Source: an uncultured virus (IMG/VR IMGVR_UViG_3300030508_000022)
Taxonomy: Duplodnaviria; Heunggongvirae; Uroviricota; Caudoviricetes
IMG/VR virus record: IMGVR_UViG_3300030508_000022
Coordinates: 53,392-73,391 of that record
Reading direction: 5' to 3' (one strand)
Length of the DNA stretch: 20,000 nucleotides
The position numbers were made by a program, and so were the translations under genes. The notes below the pieces were generated by a model. It was given only the letters and a program-made list of their open reading frames with translations. It was not told the DNA's origin and did not search any database. Positions 4,038 to 13,855 of the stretch are shown piece by piece (the first letter of the stretch is position 1; every line of letters begins with the position of its first letter).

Positions 4038-4817
4038 ATGTCTTCATCCAAAAAGTTCGTGACAGAAAAAAACAAAAAGACAGATGAGTCTCAGTTTCCA
4101 GTCATAAAGTCAGAGGAGGATTCAGAGCTTCCTGAGAAAGAAGATCTCTTTGATAACTCCCCTAGGCCAGTCTTAACCTCCCTGATTGTTTCAGGAAAAG
4201 AGATCTCTGTCCCTTCCTCCTGTCAGTTCGATACAAAAGCGTTCTGGCATCCCAACCTGCCATTCGTCAACTCCTACAGAAACGAAGGGATCCTTCCAGT
4301 TAAGGAAACTAAGGAGTGGCTCTACAACAACTTCCTAGAAACCCTCACAGACCAAGAGGGTACCCAGAAGGTTATGGCAATGGAGAACGACGAACTTCTA
4401 GGAGTTGTCGCTACTCTATCCAAAGATCAATTTGAGAGACTGGCAATATACTGCTCGCAGAGGTTGTCTGAGGGCGCATACAAAGCTGAATGGAATGTAG
4501 AGATGTGGAACATTGGGTTCTCTCTCTTCTCAGAGCTTGGAATGGTACGGCTAGGGGTAGTTCCCCTTCCAGATGCCAAGAGGCTTTGGGTTGGAAGAGA
4601 TTCAGTTGCTGGATCCAGGCAAATTCAATTCAGGGCTGCTAGAGGAAATTTCCTCCACGTTGGCCTAGACTTTGTAAGAACCTTTATTGGTCAAGATGCC
4701 CACAAGAAGAGTTGGTCTCTCCAGCACAGAGGTGGACTCTGGAGGATAGTGTCAGGTAAACCCCGATCTCCTTCGTATATCTACATTGAGGAGTTCGACA
4801 ACGATTTATTTCAATGA
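4038..4817 (+). CDS. hypothetical protein (259 aa)
   Basis: Long ORF. The putative SD (GGGAG) lies within the hairpin GCTCCCT-GAA-AGGGAGC. ATGA overlap with the next gene. Confidence 0.8.
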   Translation: MSSSKKFVTEKNKKTDESQFPVIKSEEDSELPEKEDLFDNSPRPVLTSLIVSGKEISVPSSCQFDTKAFWHPNLPFVNSYRNEGILPVKETKEWLYNNFLETLTDQEGTQKVMAMENDELLGVVATLSKDQFERLAIYCSQRLSEGAYKAEWNVEMWNIGFSLFSELGMVRLGVVPLPDAKRLWVGRDSVAGSRQIQFRAARGNFLHVGLDFVRTFIGQDAHKKSWSLQHRGGLWRIVSGKPRSPSYIYIEEFDNDLFQ

Positions 4818-5083
4818 GTCTTCGATATGAACAGGATTCAGCAATAGCTGCTACTGAGAAGTTTTTGAAGAGCTTCTTTACTGGGAGGAAAAGAACACTC
4901 AAGGAATTGAGAGAGGAGGCGACCAAGTGCCTCAGACACTTCCCAGGAATTGACAAGGATGGCAAGCCCATCTTTAGTCAGGACAACATCAAGTGTCAGA
5001 CTAGAGATGAGGACCAAGCATTTTTTAATCCCCCAAAAATCTGTCCTCCAGTGGAGTACAGGCGTGGGGATAAGCGATACTAG
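4814..5083 (+). CDS. small phage protein resembling the BPSL0761-like family
   Basis: Pattern MSLRYEQ..AI..TEKFL...LREEA..CLRHFP resembles from memory the family motif MT.P.ER..A...R.FL...R..A..LLRHYP. Translationally coupled to the upstream ORF. Confidence 0.5.
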   Translation: MSLRYEQDSAIAATEKFLKSFFTGRKRTLKELREEATKCLRHFPGIDKDGKPIFSQDNIKCQTRDEDQAFFNPPKICPPVEYRRGDKRY

Positions 5084-5158
5084 TCAGCAGGTCAGTAACA
5101 ACGTCTGGTAGCACATTTGACATAGAGTGCTAGGAGTAACGTCCCTAGCTCCCTCCAC
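5064..5158 (+). ncRNA. putative small structured RNA with a tRNA-like 3' end
   Basis: Hairpin GCTAGG-AGTAACGTC-CCTAGC followed by TCCCT-CCA, able to pair with GGGGA at 5066-5070. The loop motif is shared with the 6903-7120 element. The 5' end overlaps the preceding CDS. Confidence 0.3.
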
Positions 5159-5328
5159 GATTGTCATTTAAAAGCGCCTACGGGATCGAGAGCCCAAAGA
5201 GCGGAGGGACTAAGTGAAAATCTGCTGTATACTTACAGAAGCACCTCTACCCGACAATCCAAAGCGCAATCCTTATACTCGATGACTTGAAAAGGGAGTG
5301 CATTCCCGTTCTGACTATTTTGATTTTA

Positions 5329-5402
5329 TGCGTGATCTTTCAATTGGCAGGAACCTGGCCAAATGGGGCTCGGGAATGTGGGTTCGAGTCCCGCTCACGC
5401 TC
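5329..5402 (+). tRNA. degenerate tRNA or tRNA-like element (no assignable anticodon)
   Basis: Acceptor GCGTGA/TCACGC, D-arm TTTC-AATTGGCA-GGAA and canonical T-arm GTGGG-TTCGAGT-CCCGC. The anticodon arm is irregular (bulged stem, 6-nt loop, no U33) and CCA is not encoded. Confidence 0.6.
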
Positions 5403-5405
5403 GTA

Positions 5406-5743
5406 TTTTCTGGACAAGGAGGTGGGCTTAGAAGCAGCCATCCATAGAGAGTTGACCGTAGTCGGGGGTCTAGGATACCTATGAGTCTACATCAAATACA
5501 CCGATAAAAAGGAGATAAATGTAGTATACGTTAGGGAATATATCTGAAGACTTATCTTATTCATTAAATAAAGGCATATGTTACCTAGGGCACTCTCCCT
5601 AGGTGATTTGAATAGGGTATGCTGCGAGGTTGCTACCTCCTCTTGTAATGAAATCTAGTTATAACCTATTGATTACAAGTAGGTATATGAGTGTTATACT
5701 ACGAGACCAGTCATTTGGCGTAAAAGCACGATTGTCCAGAAAA
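5406..5743 (+). ncRNA. structured RNA carrying 23S rRNA L11-binding (H43/H44) motifs with a large internal insert
   Basis: Perfect 12-bp closing stem TTTTCTGGACAA/TTGTCCAGAAAA. GGCTTAGAAGCAGCCATC (5425-5442) matches conserved 23S H43, and GCGTAAAAGC (5718-5727) matches the H44 loop GCGUAAUAGC with one mismatch. Confidence 0.75.
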
Positions 5744-5758
5744 CATTTTTGTAGAACT

Positions 5759-5961
5759 TCTTGGGTAGTGAAAAATACCGCTTGTTGGTTGAGTTTGGCC
5801 TGGCAAACTGTCATGACCCTATCAGCTTTGGTATGATTGGCTTTCAGACAAGCCACGCCTTGAAGGCAGAAAACAAGCAGGATAGTGTTGGCCAAGCTTC
5901 TTGCATTGCGCATCGCTGATACCGACGCTTACCCTGTTGCGCCTATTCTCACTACTCAAGA
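5759..5961 (+). ncRNA. putative ~200-nt structured RNA of unknown family
   Basis: 13-bp closing stem TCTTGGGTAGTGA/TCACTACTCAAGA (one G-U). Internal GCTTGTT/AACAAGC encloses hairpins AGTTTG/CAAACT, TGGCTT/AAGCCA and GCCT/AGGC. Confidence 0.55.
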
Positions 5962-6150: not shown

Positions 6151-6897
6151 ATGTCGTACTTAGTACTCGACCCACAAAACAGCATTGAGGACAAATTCAA
6201 AGTCATCTCAGCAGTATCAGCAAGCAGACAGCATGGAGTTCAGTTCCGCCCAAGATCCTCTCAGGATAATACTTGGTTCGACTTCCCATGCACAGAAGTA
6301 ACAGACGAACATGTTCGTCAGAACTTCTTTAGAATCCCGATTTCGGGACAGGAGCAGACCTATCAAATCGAGCCGGTTCGCCGTGTGGTGTATCCAGCAC
6401 TCGCTGACATCGAACCGAAAGACACTTGGCTAAACCCAGGTCGCCTCTCTCCCGAGCAGATCAATACTGCAGCGGGATATCGTTTATTGACAAAGAATGA
6501 ACAGATTGCAATCGAGCTAGGTAAGGTCTCACAATGCTTCATTGGCGATCTTGAATTTTACGACTCCGGTGTTTGGAGAACGCGTCACCTAGGCAGTGCC
6601 CTTGCTGGCAAGAACGGTTTAACCACTTACCGCACCAAGCGTAAGTACAAGAACCCACTGAGTTCAAAAACTGATGATTGGTTCACTCCAACAATGACTT
6701 GGATTCGACTCAAGCGAGACAAGTCTACTGCGTGGCTTGTAACAGAAATTGTCCTTGATTTAACTTCAGGCCGTCCCGAGGGGTTGTTATTTAATAATGT
6801 TAGACACGATGTACTAAGTCTCATCCGTTCGGACAAATATGAGGTTAGTGCTGGTGACGACTATTGGCAGCCATTATCGGTCTTCAAAAACATTTAG
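6151..6897 (+). CDS. hypothetical protein (248 aa) embedded in the ncRNA array
   Basis: Long ORF with AAGGA upstream. No family recognised. Confidence 0.8.
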   Translation: MSYLVLDPQNSIEDKFKVISAVSASRQHGVQFRPRSSQDNTWFDFPCTEVTDEHVRQNFFRIPISGQEQTYQIEPVRRVVYPALADIEPKDTWLNPGRLSPEQINTAAGYRLLTKNEQIAIELGKVSQCFIGDLEFYDSGVWRTRHLGSALAGKNGLTTYRTKRKYKNPLSSKTDDWFTPTMTWIRLKRDKSTAWLVTEIVLDLTSGRPEGLLFNNVRHDVLSLIRSDKYEVSAGDDYWQPLSVFKNI

Positions 6898-6902
6898 TTG
6901 AT

Positions 6903-7120
6903 TTTGGTAGGCGGTGTGAAATCGTAGAACATAAAGGTTAGTTTCAAAGATAATCCTAGGGCCCCAAATTTAGGACTTTGAATCAGGTATTTAGCAAGGC
7001 ACTGATAAAGCTTAGACCTTAAAATACTCTACAAGGAAATACTGGAGTACCAGTCCGGTTAGAAATGAGAGTATACCGAAACGCAGATAATCGTGGGAAG
7101 TAACGTCCCACCCTACCAAA
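6903..7120 (+). ncRNA. putative ~215-nt structured RNA with a tRNA-like 3' end
   Basis: Closing stem TTTGGTAGG/CCTACCAAA stacked on hairpin GTGGGA-AGTAACG-TCCCAC. Internal stems TTCAAAG/CTTTGAA, ATACTCT/AGAGTAT, ACTGG/CCAGT and CGGT/ACCG. Confidence 0.6.
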
Positions 7121-7126
7121 TTGCCT

Positions 7127-7270
7127 TTTTGTAGTGCCGCAAGGCTGTGGTGAAACCATCCACAAATAGTAAGTGACCGAGTCCCTTTGCGAGCTGCAGG
7201 TTTCTTCAGGACAGAGGCAGGGGCCGGATCATCCTGTTACCATTCAGTGCACAAAACTATTACTACAAAA
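7127..7270 (+). ncRNA. putative ~145-nt structured RNA of unknown family
   Basis: Closing stem TTTTGTAGTG/TACTACAAAA, a GCC-GCAA-GGC GNRA hairpin and an internal CCCTTTGC/GCAGGGG stem. Confidence 0.5.
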
Positions 7271-7325
7271 TAAGCGGCAAAGGCCGCTCAGATATTGCCC
7301 ATGTTAGTTTAGTAGAAAGTTCAGT

Positions 7326-7793
7326 ATGGCAAAGAAGATTAGTGTAGAGGAGTTAGATACAGTCTTGACTGCTTCAGTCCAGGACGGAGCAGAGAAAGAA
7401 AGAATTTTAGCAGAGGTTCGTAATTATATTGCGAATCTTGCAAATGATCAGGACGAGGCAGAGCCTGCTGTAGAGACCAGGGATGTAACAATCCTTTTTG
7501 GCTCTCAGGAGACCATTGACGTGATTGATACCGACGCGATTGTAGCGTTCACTGTCAAAATTGAAGCCACCTCAGATCATAACCAGATAATTCCTCATTT
7601 GCTAGCGAAGGCCAGTATTTTTAATCAGAACACAAGGCGTAGAAACTCTCGTATCCAGAATCTGGGCGAGACTTTCAACACCCTCAGTCCTAAAAGGCAC
7701 TTGGATGAGTTTCCTAAAAAGATCCTCACCAAGCAAGCGTCCCTGGTCATCAAGACCACGAACCATCCTATACAGAGTGTTGTTGTGCGTTGA
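7326..7793 (+). CDS. hypothetical protein (155 aa)
   Basis: Clean ORF with plausible composition. No family recognised. Confidence 0.8.
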   Translation: MAKKISVEELDTVLTASVQDGAEKERILAEVRNYIANLANDQDEAEPAVETRDVTILFGSQETIDVIDTDAIVAFTVKIEATSDHNQIIPHLLAKASIFNQNTRRRNSRIQNLGETFNTLSPKRHLDEFPKKILTKQASLVIKTTNHPIQSVVVR

Positions 7794-7938: not shown

Positions 7939-8184
7939 ATGGCAAACGGTAACATTCGTATCACTGTCTCCTTCGGAGGCAACCAGCTCCCAATCAATGG
8001 TCTCCCTGTGGGGTCCACTCTGAGCTGCATTCGTGCCAACCGCAACGTTTCTGCAGCCCTCGGCTACAGCAACGAGAACGTGGAGTTCGTCCTCAACGGC
8101 TCCCGCGCAAGCGACAATACTGTCATCTCTGACGGCGATGTCGTTAACGTTCAGCACAAGGCACACGAGAAGGCTTCCGCCTAG
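7939..8184 (+). CDS. ubiquitin-like (beta-grasp, ThiS/MoaD/Prok-Ub-like) protein (81 aa)
   Basis: Size and strand/helix pattern (IRITVSF...GSTLSCI...VEFVLNG...DNTVISDGDVVNV) are typical of beta-grasp proteins. First gene of an E2/E1/JAB cluster. Confidence 0.85.
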   Translation: MANGNIRITVSFGGNQLPINGLPVGSTLSCIRANRNVSAALGYSNENVEFVLNGSRASDNTVISDGDVVNVQHKAHEKASA

Positions 8185-8200
8185 TCTCGTAGGCTAATTT

Positions 8201-8236
8201 TATCCCCCAATCTCGTTGCGCCGAGATTGGGGGATA
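8201..8236 (+). terminator. perfect 15-bp hairpin between the Ubl and E2 genes
   Basis: TATCCCCCAATCTCG-TTGCGC-CGAGATTGGGGGATA, with a T-rich run about 10 nt downstream. Confidence 0.65.
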
Positions 8237-8282
8237 TCTTAGACATTTATTTTTTTTATATCCCACAAGTTCTTCAAAACAC

Positions 8283-9092
8283 ATGAAACCTCTTATTATC
8301 CTTAACGAAGACGGTGTCGCATACCGTATGGAGCCATTCGCTCTACAAAATGTTAGTGAGATCATCGAACGAGTCTCAAATCAGTCGTTCTCAACCATCA
8401 AAAAGCATACGACTTTTGAGGTTGCAGAATCAGTTGGATCATCAGGCGTACAGTACAAAAGGGTGCCATTCCACCTGTCCATTACGAAGAAGAACGAAGC
8501 TGTCTACTGGGGATATATTCCTGGGATTGTCTTTGATACCTCCTTCCAGATTGTGGAACACAGTGGAACCCCTCGATTGATCGCTGATTTTACTCGCTCA
8601 GCAACTGACGCATTCCAGGATAGGATTTACTGCTCATCGGAATCTCTCAGTACTTCGGATTGCAAGGTTCGGTTCTTGGTTGCTATCTCTCTTACTCCAG
8701 GGGGGTCAGGCAATTACGAAATCAATGCATATTTCTGCTTCCAACTTTTTGATGTGAAAGCGGGGTTAATTATGGGCAACTTCTTGCCGTGTATCCCAAA
8801 CGTCTTCGCTGACGCCAGGGTTTGCATGGGTAGTGCCTTTGATAAGTACACCAATCCTGTCAAAACCTCGGATGAAGAAATCCAGCGTACCCTCAAGTCA
8901 TTCTTTGAGAGCCGCATGAATTCGGATCTGATCACTCAAGGTGCAAATCGCATCGAGTTGGCAGACCAGCTAATTGGGTGGAACAGAGAAAAGAAGCAGG
9001 TTGCTCCCATCAAGTCCGCCAAAACAATCCTCACCGTCAAAGTTGGAAACTACTATCTTGATGGCCTTCCATACGCCACAGTTGGTTGGTAA
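8283..9092 (+). CDS. prokaryotic E2-like (ubiquitin-conjugating fold) protein, similar to Prok-E2/PRTRC protein B
   Basis: Motif P-NVF-DARVCMG with putative catalytic Cys181 and downstream FFESRMNSDL. Context next to Ubl, E1 and JAB. Confidence 0.75.
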   Translation: MKPLIILNEDGVAYRMEPFALQNVSEIIERVSNQSFSTIKKHTTFEVAESVGSSGVQYKRVPFHLSITKKNEAVYWGYIPGIVFDTSFQIVEHSGTPRLIADFTRSATDAFQDRIYCSSESLSTSDCKVRFLVAISLTPGGSGNYEINAYFCFQLFDVKAGLIMGNFLPCIPNVFADARVCMGSAFDKYTNPVKTSDEEIQRTLKSFFESRMNSDLITQGANRIELADQLIGWNREKKQVAPIKSAKTILTVKVGNYYLDGLPYATVGW

Positions 9093-9101
9093 TACACATA
9101 C

Positions 9102-10208
9102 ATGAAATCCTTATTCCAAGAAATGTTGGAGTTGCCTGGATTGCCTGTCAGTTCCGAAACTATTTTCGGAGCTACTCGTCGGTCCAGGATGTTGTCTCTT
9201 CTTGACGACTTTAGTTATCTCAAAAAAAATGGAGGGGAGCTGAAAATATTCCCACTTACTGCAGAACAAAAAGCGGATAGGCGGGACCGAAGTTTTATAT
9301 CTAAGGAGCTATCCGAGTCCTTTGAGATTGGTCAATTCCAGTGCCAAATATTCGATGCAGTTGTTAAAAAGCTGGAAGCAGAGGTTTCCAGAGGAGAAGA
9401 TTCTCCTTGGGCTTTGCGATTCATTGCAGAGATGCCTCGACAGCAGGAGCCACAACAGGCTCCTGTACCACAAGCCCTACCAGAGGTTCGAGTGGAGGAA
9501 CAACCCCTTACGGGAGTTTTCCCAGCTGATGCATTCAATACTCCAGTGGCGCAGCAGGCTACTCCAGCAGTTGTTCCAGTTGTTGCCCCAGCTGCCTATC
9601 AGCCTACAACTCCACGTCAACAAGTTCCCATTGCACCAATTATTGGTGGAATTGGGGCTGAAGTAAATTGGGCGGATATAGCTGAGCCAACACCTGCACC
9701 TAATCGTGGTGCTCCTCAGGTTACAGATGGATTCGTCGATATGGATCCAGCTGACTTTGAGAATCTTCCTACGGCAGCTCCTACTACCCCTCCTCCCGCT
9801 CCCACGGCAGCAGAGGCAGCAGAGGCGGGAGAAGTTCCTCGCGCTACCATGGCCAATGAAACTCCAGCTGTTGGCGAAGGTGCGATTACAGGATTTGGTG
9901 AAATTCGTACACCTGAGGCTGTGGATCAGATTGTTACACCACCAGCTGTTGGTACTACGGTGGTTCAGGTTACTGATGGTGCAGGTGCCGCTGGATTGTG
10001 GCATACACCAGCTGTTGGTAATCAATTCTTTGGAGTTAATCAGGGAGATGACCACATAGTGTTTACCCCTACTGATCACAACCTGTTCATTACTGCTGAT
10101 AACAATCTGGCAGTGGGTGATACTCCAGCTCCAGTAGCTGATGTTCCAGATGTGCAGCAGGCAGTTCGGAATACAGTTCGTAGGCGCGTACGCGCAATAA
10201 ACGAATAG
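9102..10208 (+). CDS. protein with a small N-terminal domain and a long Pro/Ala/Thr/Val-rich lysine-free region (368 aa)
   Basis: ORF starts 9 nt after the E2 stop. Repeated TPAV/PAVG motifs. Last Lys at residue 90. Confidence 0.8.
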   Translation: MKSLFQEMLELPGLPVSSETIFGATRRSRMLSLLDDFSYLKKNGGELKIFPLTAEQKADRRDRSFISKELSESFEIGQFQCQIFDAVVKKLEAEVSRGEDSPWALRFIAEMPRQQEPQQAPVPQALPEVRVEEQPLTGVFPADAFNTPVAQQATPAVVPVVAPAAYQPTTPRQQVPIAPIIGGIGAEVNWADIAEPTPAPNRGAPQVTDGFVDMDPADFENLPTAAPTTPPPAPTAAEAAEAGEVPRATMANETPAVGEGAITGFGEIRTPEAVDQIVTPPAVGTTVVQVTDGAGAAGLWHTPAVGNQFFGVNQGDDHIVFTPTDHNLFITADNNLAVGDTPAPVADVPDVQQAVRNTVRRRVRAINE

Positions 10209-10234
10209 TATACGCACTAACTGAAAGTTAAATG

Positions 10235-10266
10235 GGTCAGTGCCGAAAAGTCGGCACTGACCATTT
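10235..10266 (+). terminator. hairpin, probable terminator or processing site
   Basis: 12-bp stem GGTCAGTGCCGA-AAAG-TCGGCACTGACC followed by ATTTCTT. Confidence 0.6.
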
Positions 10267-10308
10267 CTTAGATAAACAAAAATCAACCAAAAAACAATTA
10301 ATCAAAAT

Positions 10309-11022
10309 ATGAAACAGAACTACTACGTCATCGGATGTGGAGGGGTATGCAGCTATTTCTTGCCAGCATTCCTCAAGACCCTCAATTACTCCAAGGAGTT
10401 TAAGGGGTCAACAGTAACCCTAGTTGATGGCGATACAATCGAGGACAGGAATTATGAGCGTCAGCTCTTCGCCAGCGGATTGACGGGAATGAACAAGGCA
10501 GAGGCCTTGATGTCGGTTCTTGGTGAAAGTCACCCCAACATCAATCTCAAGACACATTCCGAATATGTGACTGGATCATTCCCCATTAAGGATGGTTCTG
10601 TTGTCATTGCGTTTGTCGACAATCATCCGGCTCGAAAAGACATCCTATCAATTGTTGATCGTCATGAGGCAAAGTGCTTCATTGGAGCCAATGGTCGGAT
10701 ATCTGCCAGCTCGTATTATTACGACCACAAGTGGGAGGGGACTACTCTGGATCCGCGAGTGCGATATCCTGAGATACTTACTACTGAGCGCGGTTCACCT
10801 GTCCATGCGGCTGGGTGCAATACCGAAGAGCACCTGGAAGAGATTCCACAAACATCACTGGCAAATTACTTTGCCGGAGCACACACACTACTCTTGTGGA
10901 ACTTCTGGACCACTGAGTACAAAGAACTTGACCCCGAGCAGTCATACGACTTCTGGCCGGTTGAGATAAGCAACACCGACATGCGCTATGCGACAAAGAT
11001 GGTTGGAGACCTAAAGGAATAA
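10309..11022 (+). CDS. ThiF/MoeB/E1-family adenylyltransferase (Ubl-activating enzyme)
   Basis: VIGCGGVC nucleotide loop, VDGDTIEDRNYERQ, NKAEAL and VDNHPAR motifs. Candidate thioester Cys170 (AAGC) followed by Q---AN. No CxxC zinc pairs. Confidence 0.93.
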   Translation: MKQNYYVIGCGGVCSYFLPAFLKTLNYSKEFKGSTVTLVDGDTIEDRNYERQLFASGLTGMNKAEALMSVLGESHPNINLKTHSEYVTGSFPIKDGSVVIAFVDNHPARKDILSIVDRHEAKCFIGANGRISASSYYYDHKWEGTTLDPRVRYPEILTTERGSPVHAAGCNTEEHLEEIPQTSLANYFAGAHTLLLWNFWTTEYKELDPEQSYDFWPVEISNTDMRYATKMVGDLKE

Positions 11023-12636
11023 ATGGAACAAACACCAGAACAATCAATACCAGCATCGGAAGAGCAAGTGGATAAGCCGTTCTTCCCAATAGCTCCATAT
11101 CACTACTTCAAAAATACATCGTATCGGTCTTCGATGTTGTCTGATCGTAGGGCCCAGTTGGTTAGATGGGGTCTCAATCCACAGAGAAATATATTTGTGG
11201 GTAATTTTGCGGGGGCGCTCTTACTAGAAGGACACCCTGGTGCAGATTGCGTCCCATTTGACATGACGGCATGTGGATATCCTATCGTACCTGAAGCGTA
11301 CGAAAAGATATTCAGTCACATGACCCCTATGGGGTACTTCAATCCAGTAATTGATGGAAAGATTCTGTCATACATGGCGGATATTCCATTCATTCCATTT
11401 GAGGTAACAAAGGCATGCAAGACGGTTTGCGGGTCTAACTACAGCCTTCCCAAGGGCAAGTTCTTGAGCGTTGGTCGTCGTACCAGGAGCTCTCGTGGTG
11501 GTGGACGGTCTTCACTGTTTGACCCGACCAATAACAATATTCAGGTTGAGTTTATTCGTCTTGCTGACGGAGATACCTCAACTCCTACTGTTATGACAAT
11601 TGAGGACAACGTGAACATGGCCAATTTCGATATAAGTAATATCTTTATCGACTCAAAACATACGGTTAATAAAAGTCTCTTGGGATTATTTATTCTACCT
11701 ATTGGTTCAGTGGTGTGGTTTTGGAACAATCAAAAATGGACTACCTGCAGCGTTAAGACATCTAAGACCAAAGATGGTGTTATGGACTTCAGTCTTGTTG
11801 AGGTTGCAGCAACAAAAAGTGGTGGATCCAACGAGAGGGCAGTTGTGTTTCAAACATCGGGTGAGGAGATCGAGGTACATAAAACAGTATCCAAAATGAT
11901 GGAGAGTGACACTATTCGAGTTGCTCAAAAGAGCATCAAGTCGGTTGGTGTCAAGGATTCAACCTACGGAACTGTACGAGGACAGATCATGAAAATGCTC
12001 TGTAACGAGTTCGGCTCTGAGATCCTGGGTCCCGTAAAGACCAACCTATTGCAGTCAAGTGAACACAAGACGATGAAAAACGTCATTGAGTTTGCCGACA
12101 GGCTGGTGTCCAAAACCCCATCAATTAGTGTATCACTGCACAGTGGTTCAACAATGATGTCTATATGGCAAGCAGCTATTCGTGCTGCTGAGGATCAGGT
12201 TCCACTTTACTGGGATAACCAGTTTGTCGAACTTGGTTCAGGTAACATATCAAGTATACTAGGGGGGTTTGGACTTCATTGCTACCGTCCAAGTAGTGAC
12301 AACTACGATAGAACATTGTCTCATCTTCAGATGGACCCCAAAACAGCAAAGGGTCTATTTAAGAAAGTCAAAGTTGAGTGCTCTGGGACTTTTGTGTCCA
12401 CAATCAAGAGGACATCAAAAGCCAAGATCAAAACCGCCATAATGGTGGAAGTTCCTTCGGCTATCGCCAATCAACCCTCAAACATATCCAAGGGATTGAT
12501 TGAGGCATTTATACAAAGAAAGGAAATATTTTCTCGAAGCATGTTTGAGGAAGAAGATCCATCGTCGCCCCAAGAAGAGTCTATTCAGAGAGTAGATTTT
12601 GTCTTGGATAAAAAGTCACTCATAATCAAAAGATAA
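11023..12636 (+). CDS. hypothetical protein (537 aa) within the Ubl cassette
   Basis: Starts immediately after the E1 stop (TAA-ATG) and ends 7 nt before JAB. No family recognised. Confidence 0.85.
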   Translation: MEQTPEQSIPASEEQVDKPFFPIAPYHYFKNTSYRSSMLSDRRAQLVRWGLNPQRNIFVGNFAGALLLEGHPGADCVPFDMTACGYPIVPEAYEKIFSHMTPMGYFNPVIDGKILSYMADIPFIPFEVTKACKTVCGSNYSLPKGKFLSVGRRTRSSRGGGRSSLFDPTNNNIQVEFIRLADGDTSTPTVMTIEDNVNMANFDISNIFIDSKHTVNKSLLGLFILPIGSVVWFWNNQKWTTCSVKTSKTKDGVMDFSLVEVAATKSGGSNERAVVFQTSGEEIEVHKTVSKMMESDTIRVAQKSIKSVGVKDSTYGTVRGQIMKMLCNEFGSEILGPVKTNLLQSSEHKTMKNVIEFADRLVSKTPSISVSLHSGSTMMSIWQAAIRAAEDQVPLYWDNQFVELGSGNISSILGGFGLHCYRPSSDNYDRTLSHLQMDPKTAKGLFKKVKVECSGTFVSTIKRTSKAKIKTAIMVEVPSAIANQPSNISKGLIEAFIQRKEIFSRSMFEEEDPSSPQEESIQRVDFVLDKKSLIIKR

Positions 12637-12643
12637 CAATACT

Positions 12644-13855
12644 ATGTCCGAAAGACTGTATATCCACAACAATAAGCCTCTTTACTTGAGGAGCCTGACG
12701 GAAGAAATATCTGTGTATACTCCTGTTGAGTTTACCGAGCTGAAGAGCGAGCCATTGCTACGACTCAAGACTGGGAAGATGTCCCTGTCTCTGTGGCGCA
12801 CCATTGCGTTCTTCTTCAAGAAGATAAATGATACTGAAAAATCCGAAGCTCAGGTTCGTTTGTTTTACAACAAAACAACTCGGATGTGGAAGGCTCACGC
12901 CTTCCCTCAGGAGATGAACACTGGGATGACGACCAAGGAGTTGCCAGACCATGAGAGGTTCCAGACTGACATGAACGAGATGCTGGCCGGTGGTTTCCAT
13001 CAGTGGGGAACTGCCCATAGTCATTGCAACGCTACAGCGTTTCAGAGCGGGACGGACAAGACCGACGAAGATAACTCAGCTGGTATCCATATCACCATGG
13101 GAACGGTGTCTGGGCCGAAGATTGATCTTCATGCTCGGTTTACTGTCATTCTGCCTGGATCTCTTGAGTTTGATGGTGAAGGCAAGGAGACGGCTGTGAA
13201 GGCAAGGGTGTATCAATCCAAGCCGGATCTTCGCGACTTCGTTGAGGTTCCTAACTGTTTCGTATCAGAAAATGCTCCACCAGAGATCAGGACCTTTGCC
13301 TTTGATTTCTTGATCAATACTCCCAGTGAGGAGTTGGTTGATCAAGAGCTGGTAAAGCGCTGGGTTGAGAACCGCATCCCCAAGGCCCTCACGCCTAGGG
13401 TGATTGTGCCATATGCTCAACGTCATCCGTACATGGGGTTGCCCCATCACGGTACCGGGGCTCACCATCAAGGATCCGACTATTGGAACCGTGGGGGTAA
13501 GTCAAACAGTTCAAAAAAAAAGCGAGAAAGGGCGGGGCGTTCGACAGCTGCTTCGTCGGCGCTGATGCCGGTTAATCAGTCTCTGATAGAACCACAGGTA
13601 AACAAGGTCGCGGCAAGGCACAAGATAACTCAACTCAATCTCAAGAACATTCTATCTAAAGCAGATGGGAATCTTACTAGCTCTGAGCTGAATGTCATCA
13701 TTGATATGCAGACCAATATCTTCTCGGTATACAATATATCCGAGGCATGCATGATCTTGAATCTTGAGGAATGGATTAAGGGCCGGAGGATTGCTAGTGG
13801 GATAGAAAATGGAGCCTCCATGGAAGATATCATGATGGGGTATGCCGGAGAATAA
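12644..13855 (+). CDS. JAB/JAMM (MPN+) metallopeptidase with a C-terminal extension
   Basis: Upstream Glu (KSEAQV) plus an exact H-x-H-x7-S-x2-D motif: HSHCNATAFQSGTD. GIHITMG strand follows. Confidence 0.92.
   Translation: MSERLYIHNNKPLYLRSLTEEISVYTPVEFTELKSEPLLRLKTGKMSLSLWRTIAFFFKKINDTEKSEAQVRLFYNKTTRMWKAHAFPQEMNTGMTTKELPDHERFQTDMNEMLAGGFHQWGTAHSHCNATAFQSGTDKTDEDNSAGIHITMGTVSGPKIDLHARFTVILPGSLEFDGEGKETAVKARVYQSKPDLRDFVEVPNCFVSENAPPEIRTFAFDFLINTPSEELVDQELVKRWVENRIPKALTPRVIVPYAQRHPYMGLPHHGTGAHHQGSDYWNRGGKSNSSKKKRERAGRSTAASSALMPVNQSLIEPQVNKVAARHKITQLNLKNILSKADGNLTSSELNVIIDMQTNIFSVYNISEACMILNLEEWIKGRRIASGIENGASMEDIMMGYAGE

Follow-up and report, generated by a model that had tools for sequence, protein, structure and literature searches.

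The window, that is the whole stretch of 20,000 nucleotides analysed here, is the final 20 kb of a 73,391-base virus record. Genes for a large terminase, a sigma factor, a DNA polymerase, a DnaB-like helicase, a primase, a UvsX-like recombinase and a tail-fibre-like protein identify this contig as a tailed dsDNA phage, and since one of its proteins is also encoded on a contig of 186,740 bases, the record is probably partial. The segment under study occupies part of a 1,067-base gap between open reading frames that end at 5083 and begin at 6151, the nearest frame on its 3′ side being 407 nt away. A coding reading of the segment was rejected, since no frame runs for more than 55 codons from stop to stop. 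Immediately upstream stands a degenerate tRNA which retains D and T loops and a 6-bp acceptor stem and has an irregular anticodon arm; 3 nt separate its 3′ end from the segment, for which it may serve as a 5′ processing signal. A promoter-like site at 5251-5279 was at chance level (6 such sites found, 4.1 expected).

The 338-base segment 5406-5743 is a self-closed copy of helices H43 and H44 of 23S rRNA, split between positions 1090 and 1091 (Table 1; rRNA positions are what we take to be the E. coli 23S numbers). Within the H43 copy, whose motif occurs once in the 73-kb contig, U1060 corresponds to 5423 and the loop to 5428-5436, with A1067 at 5430 and G1071/C1072 at 5434/5435. The 5′ strand of H44, GAGT at 5449-5452, provides G1087 (5449), A1088 (5450) and U1090 (5452). 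The insert is closed by TGAC 5453-5456 and GTCA 5710-5713, after which comes the linker TTTG at 5714-5717. The H44 tip begins with GCGTAAAAGC at 5718-5727, separated by the 4 bases ACGA from the 3′ arm, and its last two positions, 5730-5731, are GA where other members of the family described below have AC or AT. The distance between H43 and the H44 tip is thus 274 nt, compared with about 10 nt in rRNA. The segment retains U1060, A1088, G1059-C1079, the upper H43 stem and both loops, together with G1087-C1102, U1090-A1101 and both H44 tip pairs. G1071/C1072 are accompanied by G1091-C1100 and C1092-G1099, as required by the loop-loop base triples which we take G1071/C1072 to form with the H44 tip pairs.

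Table 1. Features of the 338-base segment and of the tRNA remnant that precedes it
Feature	Coordinates	Strand	Remarks
Degenerate tRNA	5329..5402	+	ARAGORN: possible pseudogene, His/ATG; not detected at default threshold
Closing stem, 5′ arm	5406..5417	+	Replaces the top of H42; not rRNA sequence; pair probabilities 0.4-1.0
H43 copy	5418..5443	+	23/26 identical to Salmonella 23S (1055-1080)
Shortened junction ATAGA, then H44 5′ strand	5444..5452	+	Junction of 5 nt instead of 6; A opposite A1057
Insert in H44	5453..5717	+	265 nt; lineage-specific hairpins, no ORF
H44 tip (1091-1102) and GA	5718..5731	+	Loop GTAAAA; A1095 = 5722; family signature A1101 = 5728
Closing stem, 3′ arm	5732..5743	+	Perfect 12 bp with 5406-5417

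A preliminary description of this DNA had proposed a stand-alone mimic of the L11-binding domain, with a perfect 12-bp terminal stem in the position of H42, H43 and H44-loop motifs and non-rRNA flanks. All of these were found: the stem as given in the table, the two motifs each in its place (the 3′ core 5718-5731 being 10/14 identical to Salmonella 23S), and flanks of which 3/25 and 11/25 bases are identical to 23S. The expansion of about 270 nt that it placed between the loops exists, with the length given in the table, but lies inside H44, since GAGT follows H43 directly and the interruption thus falls between 1090 and 1091. The insert had further been called hairpin-rich; the proposed arms were located at 5487/5519, 5583/5597 and 5642/5672, but the CTTGTAAT/ATTACAAG hairpin is absent from the unconstrained ensemble (probability 0) and appears only when the mimic fold is imposed. 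When the region was aligned locally to five rRNA operons, 0/40 shuffles reached its score with each operon, and the two-part core scored 61 bits, whereas 30 simulated genomes yielded no more than 3.4. A search of the region against Rfam, LSU models included, as the preliminary description had suggested, returned nothing at E≤1 and just one 14-bit chance match at E≤10. No other part of 23S, the sarcin-ricin loop included, was found in inserts or nearby, and the insert of the window resembles neither other inserts nor 23S.

We then observed that the split arrangement is shared by many phages. An exact 26-base pattern was present in 25 viral contigs, of which 23 had the same split design, one carried real rRNA and one lacked H44. 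A shorter H43 pattern gave at least 119 matches; once cultured phages and the window were included, there were at least 118 unique H43 matches: 94 were split, two had rRNA spacing and 22, some of them on short flanks, were without the H44 side. One of the 94 is mis-paired, the first copy in contig L091 (530 nt) being joined to the H44 of the second. Scans with the H44 side found at least 120 viral loci and 29 loci in species genomes, 22 of these with H43 upstream. Altogether there are at least 146 distinct split copies in viral contigs, cultured phages and genome assemblies. The cultured carriers include pf16, UNO-G1W1, Astolliot, XacN1, XaC1, Aeromonas 4_4572 and CBB (81-106 bits), none of which has the RNA annotated as an RNA gene. 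Homologues with both loops and a closing stem, whose lack had been named as grounds for abandoning the mimic, are therefore numerous.

An alignment of 31 of the 49 short members revealed covariation. Paired cells amounted to 92.1% compared with 68.6% after shuffling, the score was 0.598 compared with 0.156, and 0/500 shuffles scored as high; slid-alignment controls left 34-53% of cells paired. In the same 31-member alignment 186 cells were changed on both sides. Measures that count pairs or types did not rise above shuffles (121/500 and 131/500). The outer stem and the insert-closing helix covary at every pair, and core pairs covary as well: 1055-1104 is GC in 81 and AU in 10 members, 1057-1081 is AU in 63 and CG in 9, and 1058-1080 takes four types. 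A covariance model from phage homologues, likewise suggested beforehand, was built from these 31 members with the window left out; in the whole contig it matches only the two halves of the window copy, 5408-5511 (32 bits, E 5e-7) and 5629-5728 (15.8 bits, E 0.01). The window has the family traits, namely a self-closing stem, an insert at 1090/1091 with closing helix, a UUUR linker and A1101; position 1101 is A in 91/94 and G in 3/94 of the matches listed. Among the matches listed, a same-strand tRNA lies within 40 nt of 38/93 members and within 300 nt of 50/93, and no protein family recurs beside the RNA beyond two pairs (58 flanking ORFs, 29 loci).

The best explanation is a phage non-coding RNA gene, belonging to a widespread family with a single descent from 23S rRNA. 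Its homologues and its non-rRNA, covarying flanks strongly support the earlier suggestion of a ribosome mimic under selection rather than rRNA debris. There is no Rfam family for this RNA, and we found no description of it in the full-text literature searched, where supplements of motif catalogues could hold it unnamed. On the comparative sequence evidence, the split H43/H44 RNA thus appears to be a real, selected RNA of a kind that we have not found described, with the window copy as a divergent member and a function that we can propose.

Several relatives depart from the common plan. Contig L091 (701-1250) contains two tandem family copies in one phage, and L040 (684-755) a self-closed variant that has no insert, measures about 70 nt and differs at the junction. 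In L019 (1426-1536) an H43 half without the H44 side follows a tRNA and is probably a broken copy. L179 and L212 show a compensated change in the upper H43 stem along with altered loops. Copies in L173, L192 and L196 are found in assemblies labelled as bacterial strains, not MAGs, and presumably belong to prophages; other genome-assembly matches may be mis-binned phage contigs. A true 23S fragment occurs at 1400-1596 of L017, a 2.7-kb 'viral' contig whose sequence turns non-rRNA soon after H44, possibly through an rRNA intron. Matches in Escherichia and Shigella phages were rejected as chance, lying mostly inside fibritin genes. Phage PA5oct, with ncRNAs mapped by RNA-seq, is without the motif, its ncRNAs are not of this family, and six of the cultured carriers are absent by name from the main text of the PhageExpressionAtlas paper.

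The bases that are kept bear on the partner. Where the search left positions free, U1060 was present in 93/93 and G1059-C1079 in 77/80 of the matches listed. A second set, anchored on H44, comprised 93 members; 29 loci, several of them members with altered H43, were missed by the strict parser, and the H43 stem positions, fixed by the parser, are uninformative in this set. With the loop unconstrained, G1071 and C1072 were each kept in 92/93 of the matches listed, and the tip of H43 was looser: A1067 in 81, G1068 in 79, A1069 in 89 and A1070 in 80 of 93. Tip positions 1067-1070 were changed in 36/93 copies, 30/93 in ways absent from the rRNA controls, and some tip change occurred in 30/70 insert-based clusters; in these statistics the copies are not independent and the controls come from three phyla. 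The controls had consensus loops in 214/216 Pseudomonadota copies and intact 1067-1070 in 59/59 Bacillota copies. For 24 Bacteroidota rRNA copies the sole variation was G1067, in 7, and part of the tip variation may therefore simply mirror the host. The tip also varies between close relatives.

Protein uL11 contacts the U1060-A1088 pair, whereas the thiostrepton cleft, and with it the region that shifts while factors act, is marked by A1067 and A1095 (PMC2175356). Family members thus preserve the fold and the side facing uL11 but tolerate change at the tip, which faces the factors; this pattern points to uL11 and favours an RNA that binds uL11 rather than a decoy for GTPases or thiostrepton. 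Among the targets listed in the preliminary description uL11 fits best. uL10 is a poor match: the sequence of the outer stem is not constrained, rRNA-like sequence lies upstream in 2/94 copies among the matches listed, and no rRNA H42 sequence was found below the junction, the uL10 site being, as we take it, the H42 kink-turn. From this conservation pattern we consider it probable that the family binds uL11; for the window copy itself, binding is slightly the better guess.

The window copy has oddities of its own. In its junction the arrangement normal for the uL11 fold (a 1055-1104 pair, 1056.1103, a 1057-1081 pair and a 6-nt strand) is absent; read in the family register it gives G.A, G.G, A.A and 5 nt, and an alternative register is possible. 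A rebuilt four-way junction could hold tandem G.A pairs (5419-5420/5730-5731), or an A1055-U1104 pair with an extra G on each strand. GA at 1103-1104 was found in the window alone among the 94 split copies from the matches listed (0/93 others), and a 3′ core without AC or AU at these positions makes this copy a divergent family member. Junctions of 5 nt occur in 12 other copies, 2 of which also begin with A opposite A1057. The core score is low, with just 7/93 members lower. A search for the GA variant gave 16 matches, none with H43 upstream; the lineage-specific junction pattern had no relative in the metagenomes searched, and no close phage relatives were found through the downstream protein or protein P0002.

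Predicted folding also sets this copy somewhat apart. The whole region folds at z = -3.4 and the insert alone at z = -1.5, where 15/200 shuffles fold as well. The insert carries CTACCTCC at 5633-5640, complementary to the 5′ strand of H43, with which it pairs in the predicted ensemble (p 0.55-1.0), leaving H43 itself at p = 0. Imposing the mimic fold requires 19.3 kcal/mol, where the family median is 14.6 and 5/80 members reach as high a value, in a model that covers secondary structure without tertiary or protein contacts. Since every member pays such a cost in this model, the excess of the window copy is a difference of degree. With its lone GA at 1103-1104 and a predicted fold that hides H43, the copy may be remodelled or decaying.

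From the observed anatomy, the family, its covarying secondary structure, the tRNA-cluster context and the conservation pattern we infer a course of transcription, processing, binding and purpose. The RNA would be transcribed with the neighbouring tRNA-like gene and freed by tRNA 3′ processing. The closing stem would join both ends, H43 and the H44 tip would dock via the G1071 and C1072 triples, and the insert would branch off sideways from H44. Once folded, the core would show its U1060-A1088 face, and free host uL11 would be bound via its C-terminal domain, off the ribosome. In the least certain step, uL11 would be withheld from ribosomes, RelA/Rel would be poorly activated and the stringent response blunted during infection, because L11 is essential for RelA activation (PMC7058999). 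Given binding, we regard a stringent-response purpose as an even call. A working uL11-withholding RNA at this locus is a tentative reading that we hold at somewhat less than even, and with its junction rebuilt this copy may bind more weakly than typical members. The broader idea, that the RNA of many unrelated phages captures uL11 and lowers RelA/Rel or another uL11-dependent alarm, a counter-defence made from a ribosomal centre, is possible and rather doubtful. Several points weigh against withholding. To titrate uL11, the RNA would have to be about as abundant as ribosomes; translation is less efficient on ribosomes that lack uL11, a cost to the phage; the insert is almost always retained, which a pure sink would not need; and the window copy has the unusual GA, the low core score and the competing fold described above.

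The nature of the insert matters for two other readings. Its site, closing helix and UUUR linker are fixed across the family, while its length runs from 28 nt to more than 330 nt (shortest 28, 45 and 47 nt) with no shared sequence; it branches off H44, closed by a helix of its own and followed by the linker. Removal of the insert as a group I type intron, joining H43 and H44, would suit the window in that U is the last base of the 5′ part and G that of the insert, and excision would yield a continuous H44 with U1090-A1101. However, the last insert base is G in 84/93 and A in 9/93 of the matches listed and differs in three close-relative pairs, the shortest inserts fall far below the roughly 200 nt or more of a group I intron, and no Rfam intron matched the window or 17 loci. 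The spliced product considered in the preliminary description is therefore unlikely, and since flanks that are non-rRNA and covary also argue against rRNA debris, intron or debris is highly improbable as an account of the element. Alternatively, the core could recruit uL11 so as to stabilise the RNA and guard its ends, the lineage-specific insert being the cargo. This uL11-capped scaffold avoids the titration problem and agrees with the fixed insertion site, helix and linker, with structured inserts and with a sub-motif that recurs in 7/146 copies among the matches listed. We nevertheless consider it unlikely, given the lack of a common insert sequence over so wide a range of lengths, the insert-free variant in L040 and the window insert, which alone folds no better than shuffles.

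Other readings change the target or set the window copy apart from its family. The RNA could divert translational GTPases (EF-G, EF-Tu, IF2, RF3) as a decoy or soak up thiopeptide antibiotics as a sponge; in agreement with this, the window has both A1067 and A1095, the thiostrepton site (PMC2175356). Across the matches listed, however, A1067 is missing in 12/93 and A1095 in 7/94 copies, and no sarcin-ricin loop or other 23S part accompanies the RNA. The relaxed H43 tip thus weakens the GTPase and thiostrepton targets, which we judge very unlikely. The RNA might instead inhibit or mislead some host defence component, either an enzyme attacking H43/H44 or a sensor reading it, with tip variation as the trace of an arms race. 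Phage tRNAs are thought to counter tRNA-cleaving defences, and the family is placed among such tRNAs; the XacN1 copy comes after an RNA ligase gene, and the tip differs among close relatives. But an exposed tip should be copied faithfully and this one drifts, the ligase is one neighbour among 58 ORFs scanned, and we know of no defence enzyme aimed at H43/H44, nor did the literature searched show one, so that such a decoy is quite improbable. Finally, the family may be functional while the window copy decays with the pseudo-tRNA that adjoins it. Its sole loss of the 1055-1104 pair among the matches listed, the A opposite A1057, the low core score and the competing fold would be expected of decay. 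Against this, the closing stem is perfect over 12 bp and exceeds the family mean (6.6/8 pairs), the copy still has both loops, U1060, A1088, its insert-closing helix and its linker undamaged, and the changes are confined to one junction and readable as a consistent alternative pairing; decay is thus fairly unlikely. Under the uL11-binding reading, if true, this copy would be an example of a junction rebuilt, and possibly switched by insert pairing, with the protein-binding face kept.

The reference system for comparison is the GTPase-associated centre of 23S rRNA (top of H42, H43 and H44; the uL11-binding domain of about 58 nt; RF02541). It shares with the phage RNA the H43 sequence, the loops, U1060/A1088, G1087-C1102, the H44 tip pairs and the order of parts. 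Unlike it, the phage RNA is free-standing and closed by a non-rRNA stem, carries the 1090/1091 insert and UUUR linker, has A or G at 1101 where the Rfam rRNA consensus has a conserved U, and shows a relaxed H43 tip; the window copy also has its rebuilt junction and gives no Rfam LSU match. Ribosomal protein operon leaders (uL1, uL10-bL12 and others) similarly copy an r-protein binding site outside the ribosome. These leaders act in cis on host mRNAs, whereas the phage RNA lies among tRNA genes, with no constant gene, r-protein or other, downstream of it in the 58 ORFs at 29 loci. To our knowledge, the rRNA mimics described to date are leaders of mRNAs and act in cis. Phages carry RNA decoys such as RNA anti-CRISPRs, and tRNA and tmRNA genes; they likewise imitate host RNA, and here what is copied is a functional centre of the ribosome. 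GOLLD and ROOL are linked to tRNA arrays. They too are structured non-coding RNAs, large ones, tied to phages (PMC12286853); unlike them, the phage RNA is much smaller, is based on an rRNA domain and has no Rfam match to either. The text on uL11 consulted in a 2024 review mentions no uL11-binding RNA outside the ribosome (PMC10931766). If true, a trans-acting phage copy of a ribosomal centre, present on viral contigs and on contigs attributed to many phyla, would be a new viral RNA class and a new interference with translation control. Direct tests of the family are feasible, since the RNA occurs in cultured phages, pf16 (Pseudomonas putida) and UNO-G1W1 (P. fluorescens) among them. Its copies also amount to a natural mutagenesis experiment on a uL11 domain off the ribosome, with fold bases set against factor-contact bases.

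Further structures and genes were observed around the RNA. At 5759-5961, 16 nt 3′ of the mimic, lies a second self-closed structured element (16-nt arms, z = -2.8), which has no match in Rfam, phage records or rRNA. A third, at 6905-7120 (z = -2.7), is inside a 428-nt non-coding gap; no match to it was found and an Rfam search of 6880-7340 was empty. The idea that these elements copy other rRNA parts, which we take to be 16S h23 or h11 and 23S H24 or H26a, was rejected, none beating shuffles against the five operons. Hairpins at 5118-5165 and 7093-7112 share the 11-mer AGTAACGTCCC at their loops, a likeness to be read with single repeats of that size being near chance level here. The first of them ends in the same 10 nt as the 3′ junction of the mimic and could form a mimic-like stem, bulge and tandem G.A motif. 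An 89-aa ORF before the array (4814-5083) has a weak match to the BPSL0761 family, below cut-off. Relatives of a ThiF protein of the window occur in 6 viral contigs, and these six loci (33-35% identity) have no split H43/H44 RNA. The protein is part of a ubiquitin-like cassette at 7939-13855 that resembles PRTRC and includes an 81-aa small protein; its matches are a weak one to Prok-E2_D (E 0.002) and others to ThiF/E1 (E 1e-10) and Prok-JAB/PRTRC_A (E 2e-4 and 6e-5), and those to NCBIfam fall under their cut-offs. The ORF that follows the RNA array (6151-6897) shows a weak language-model likeness (0.86) to dual-OB-domain clusters, which we take as a lead only.
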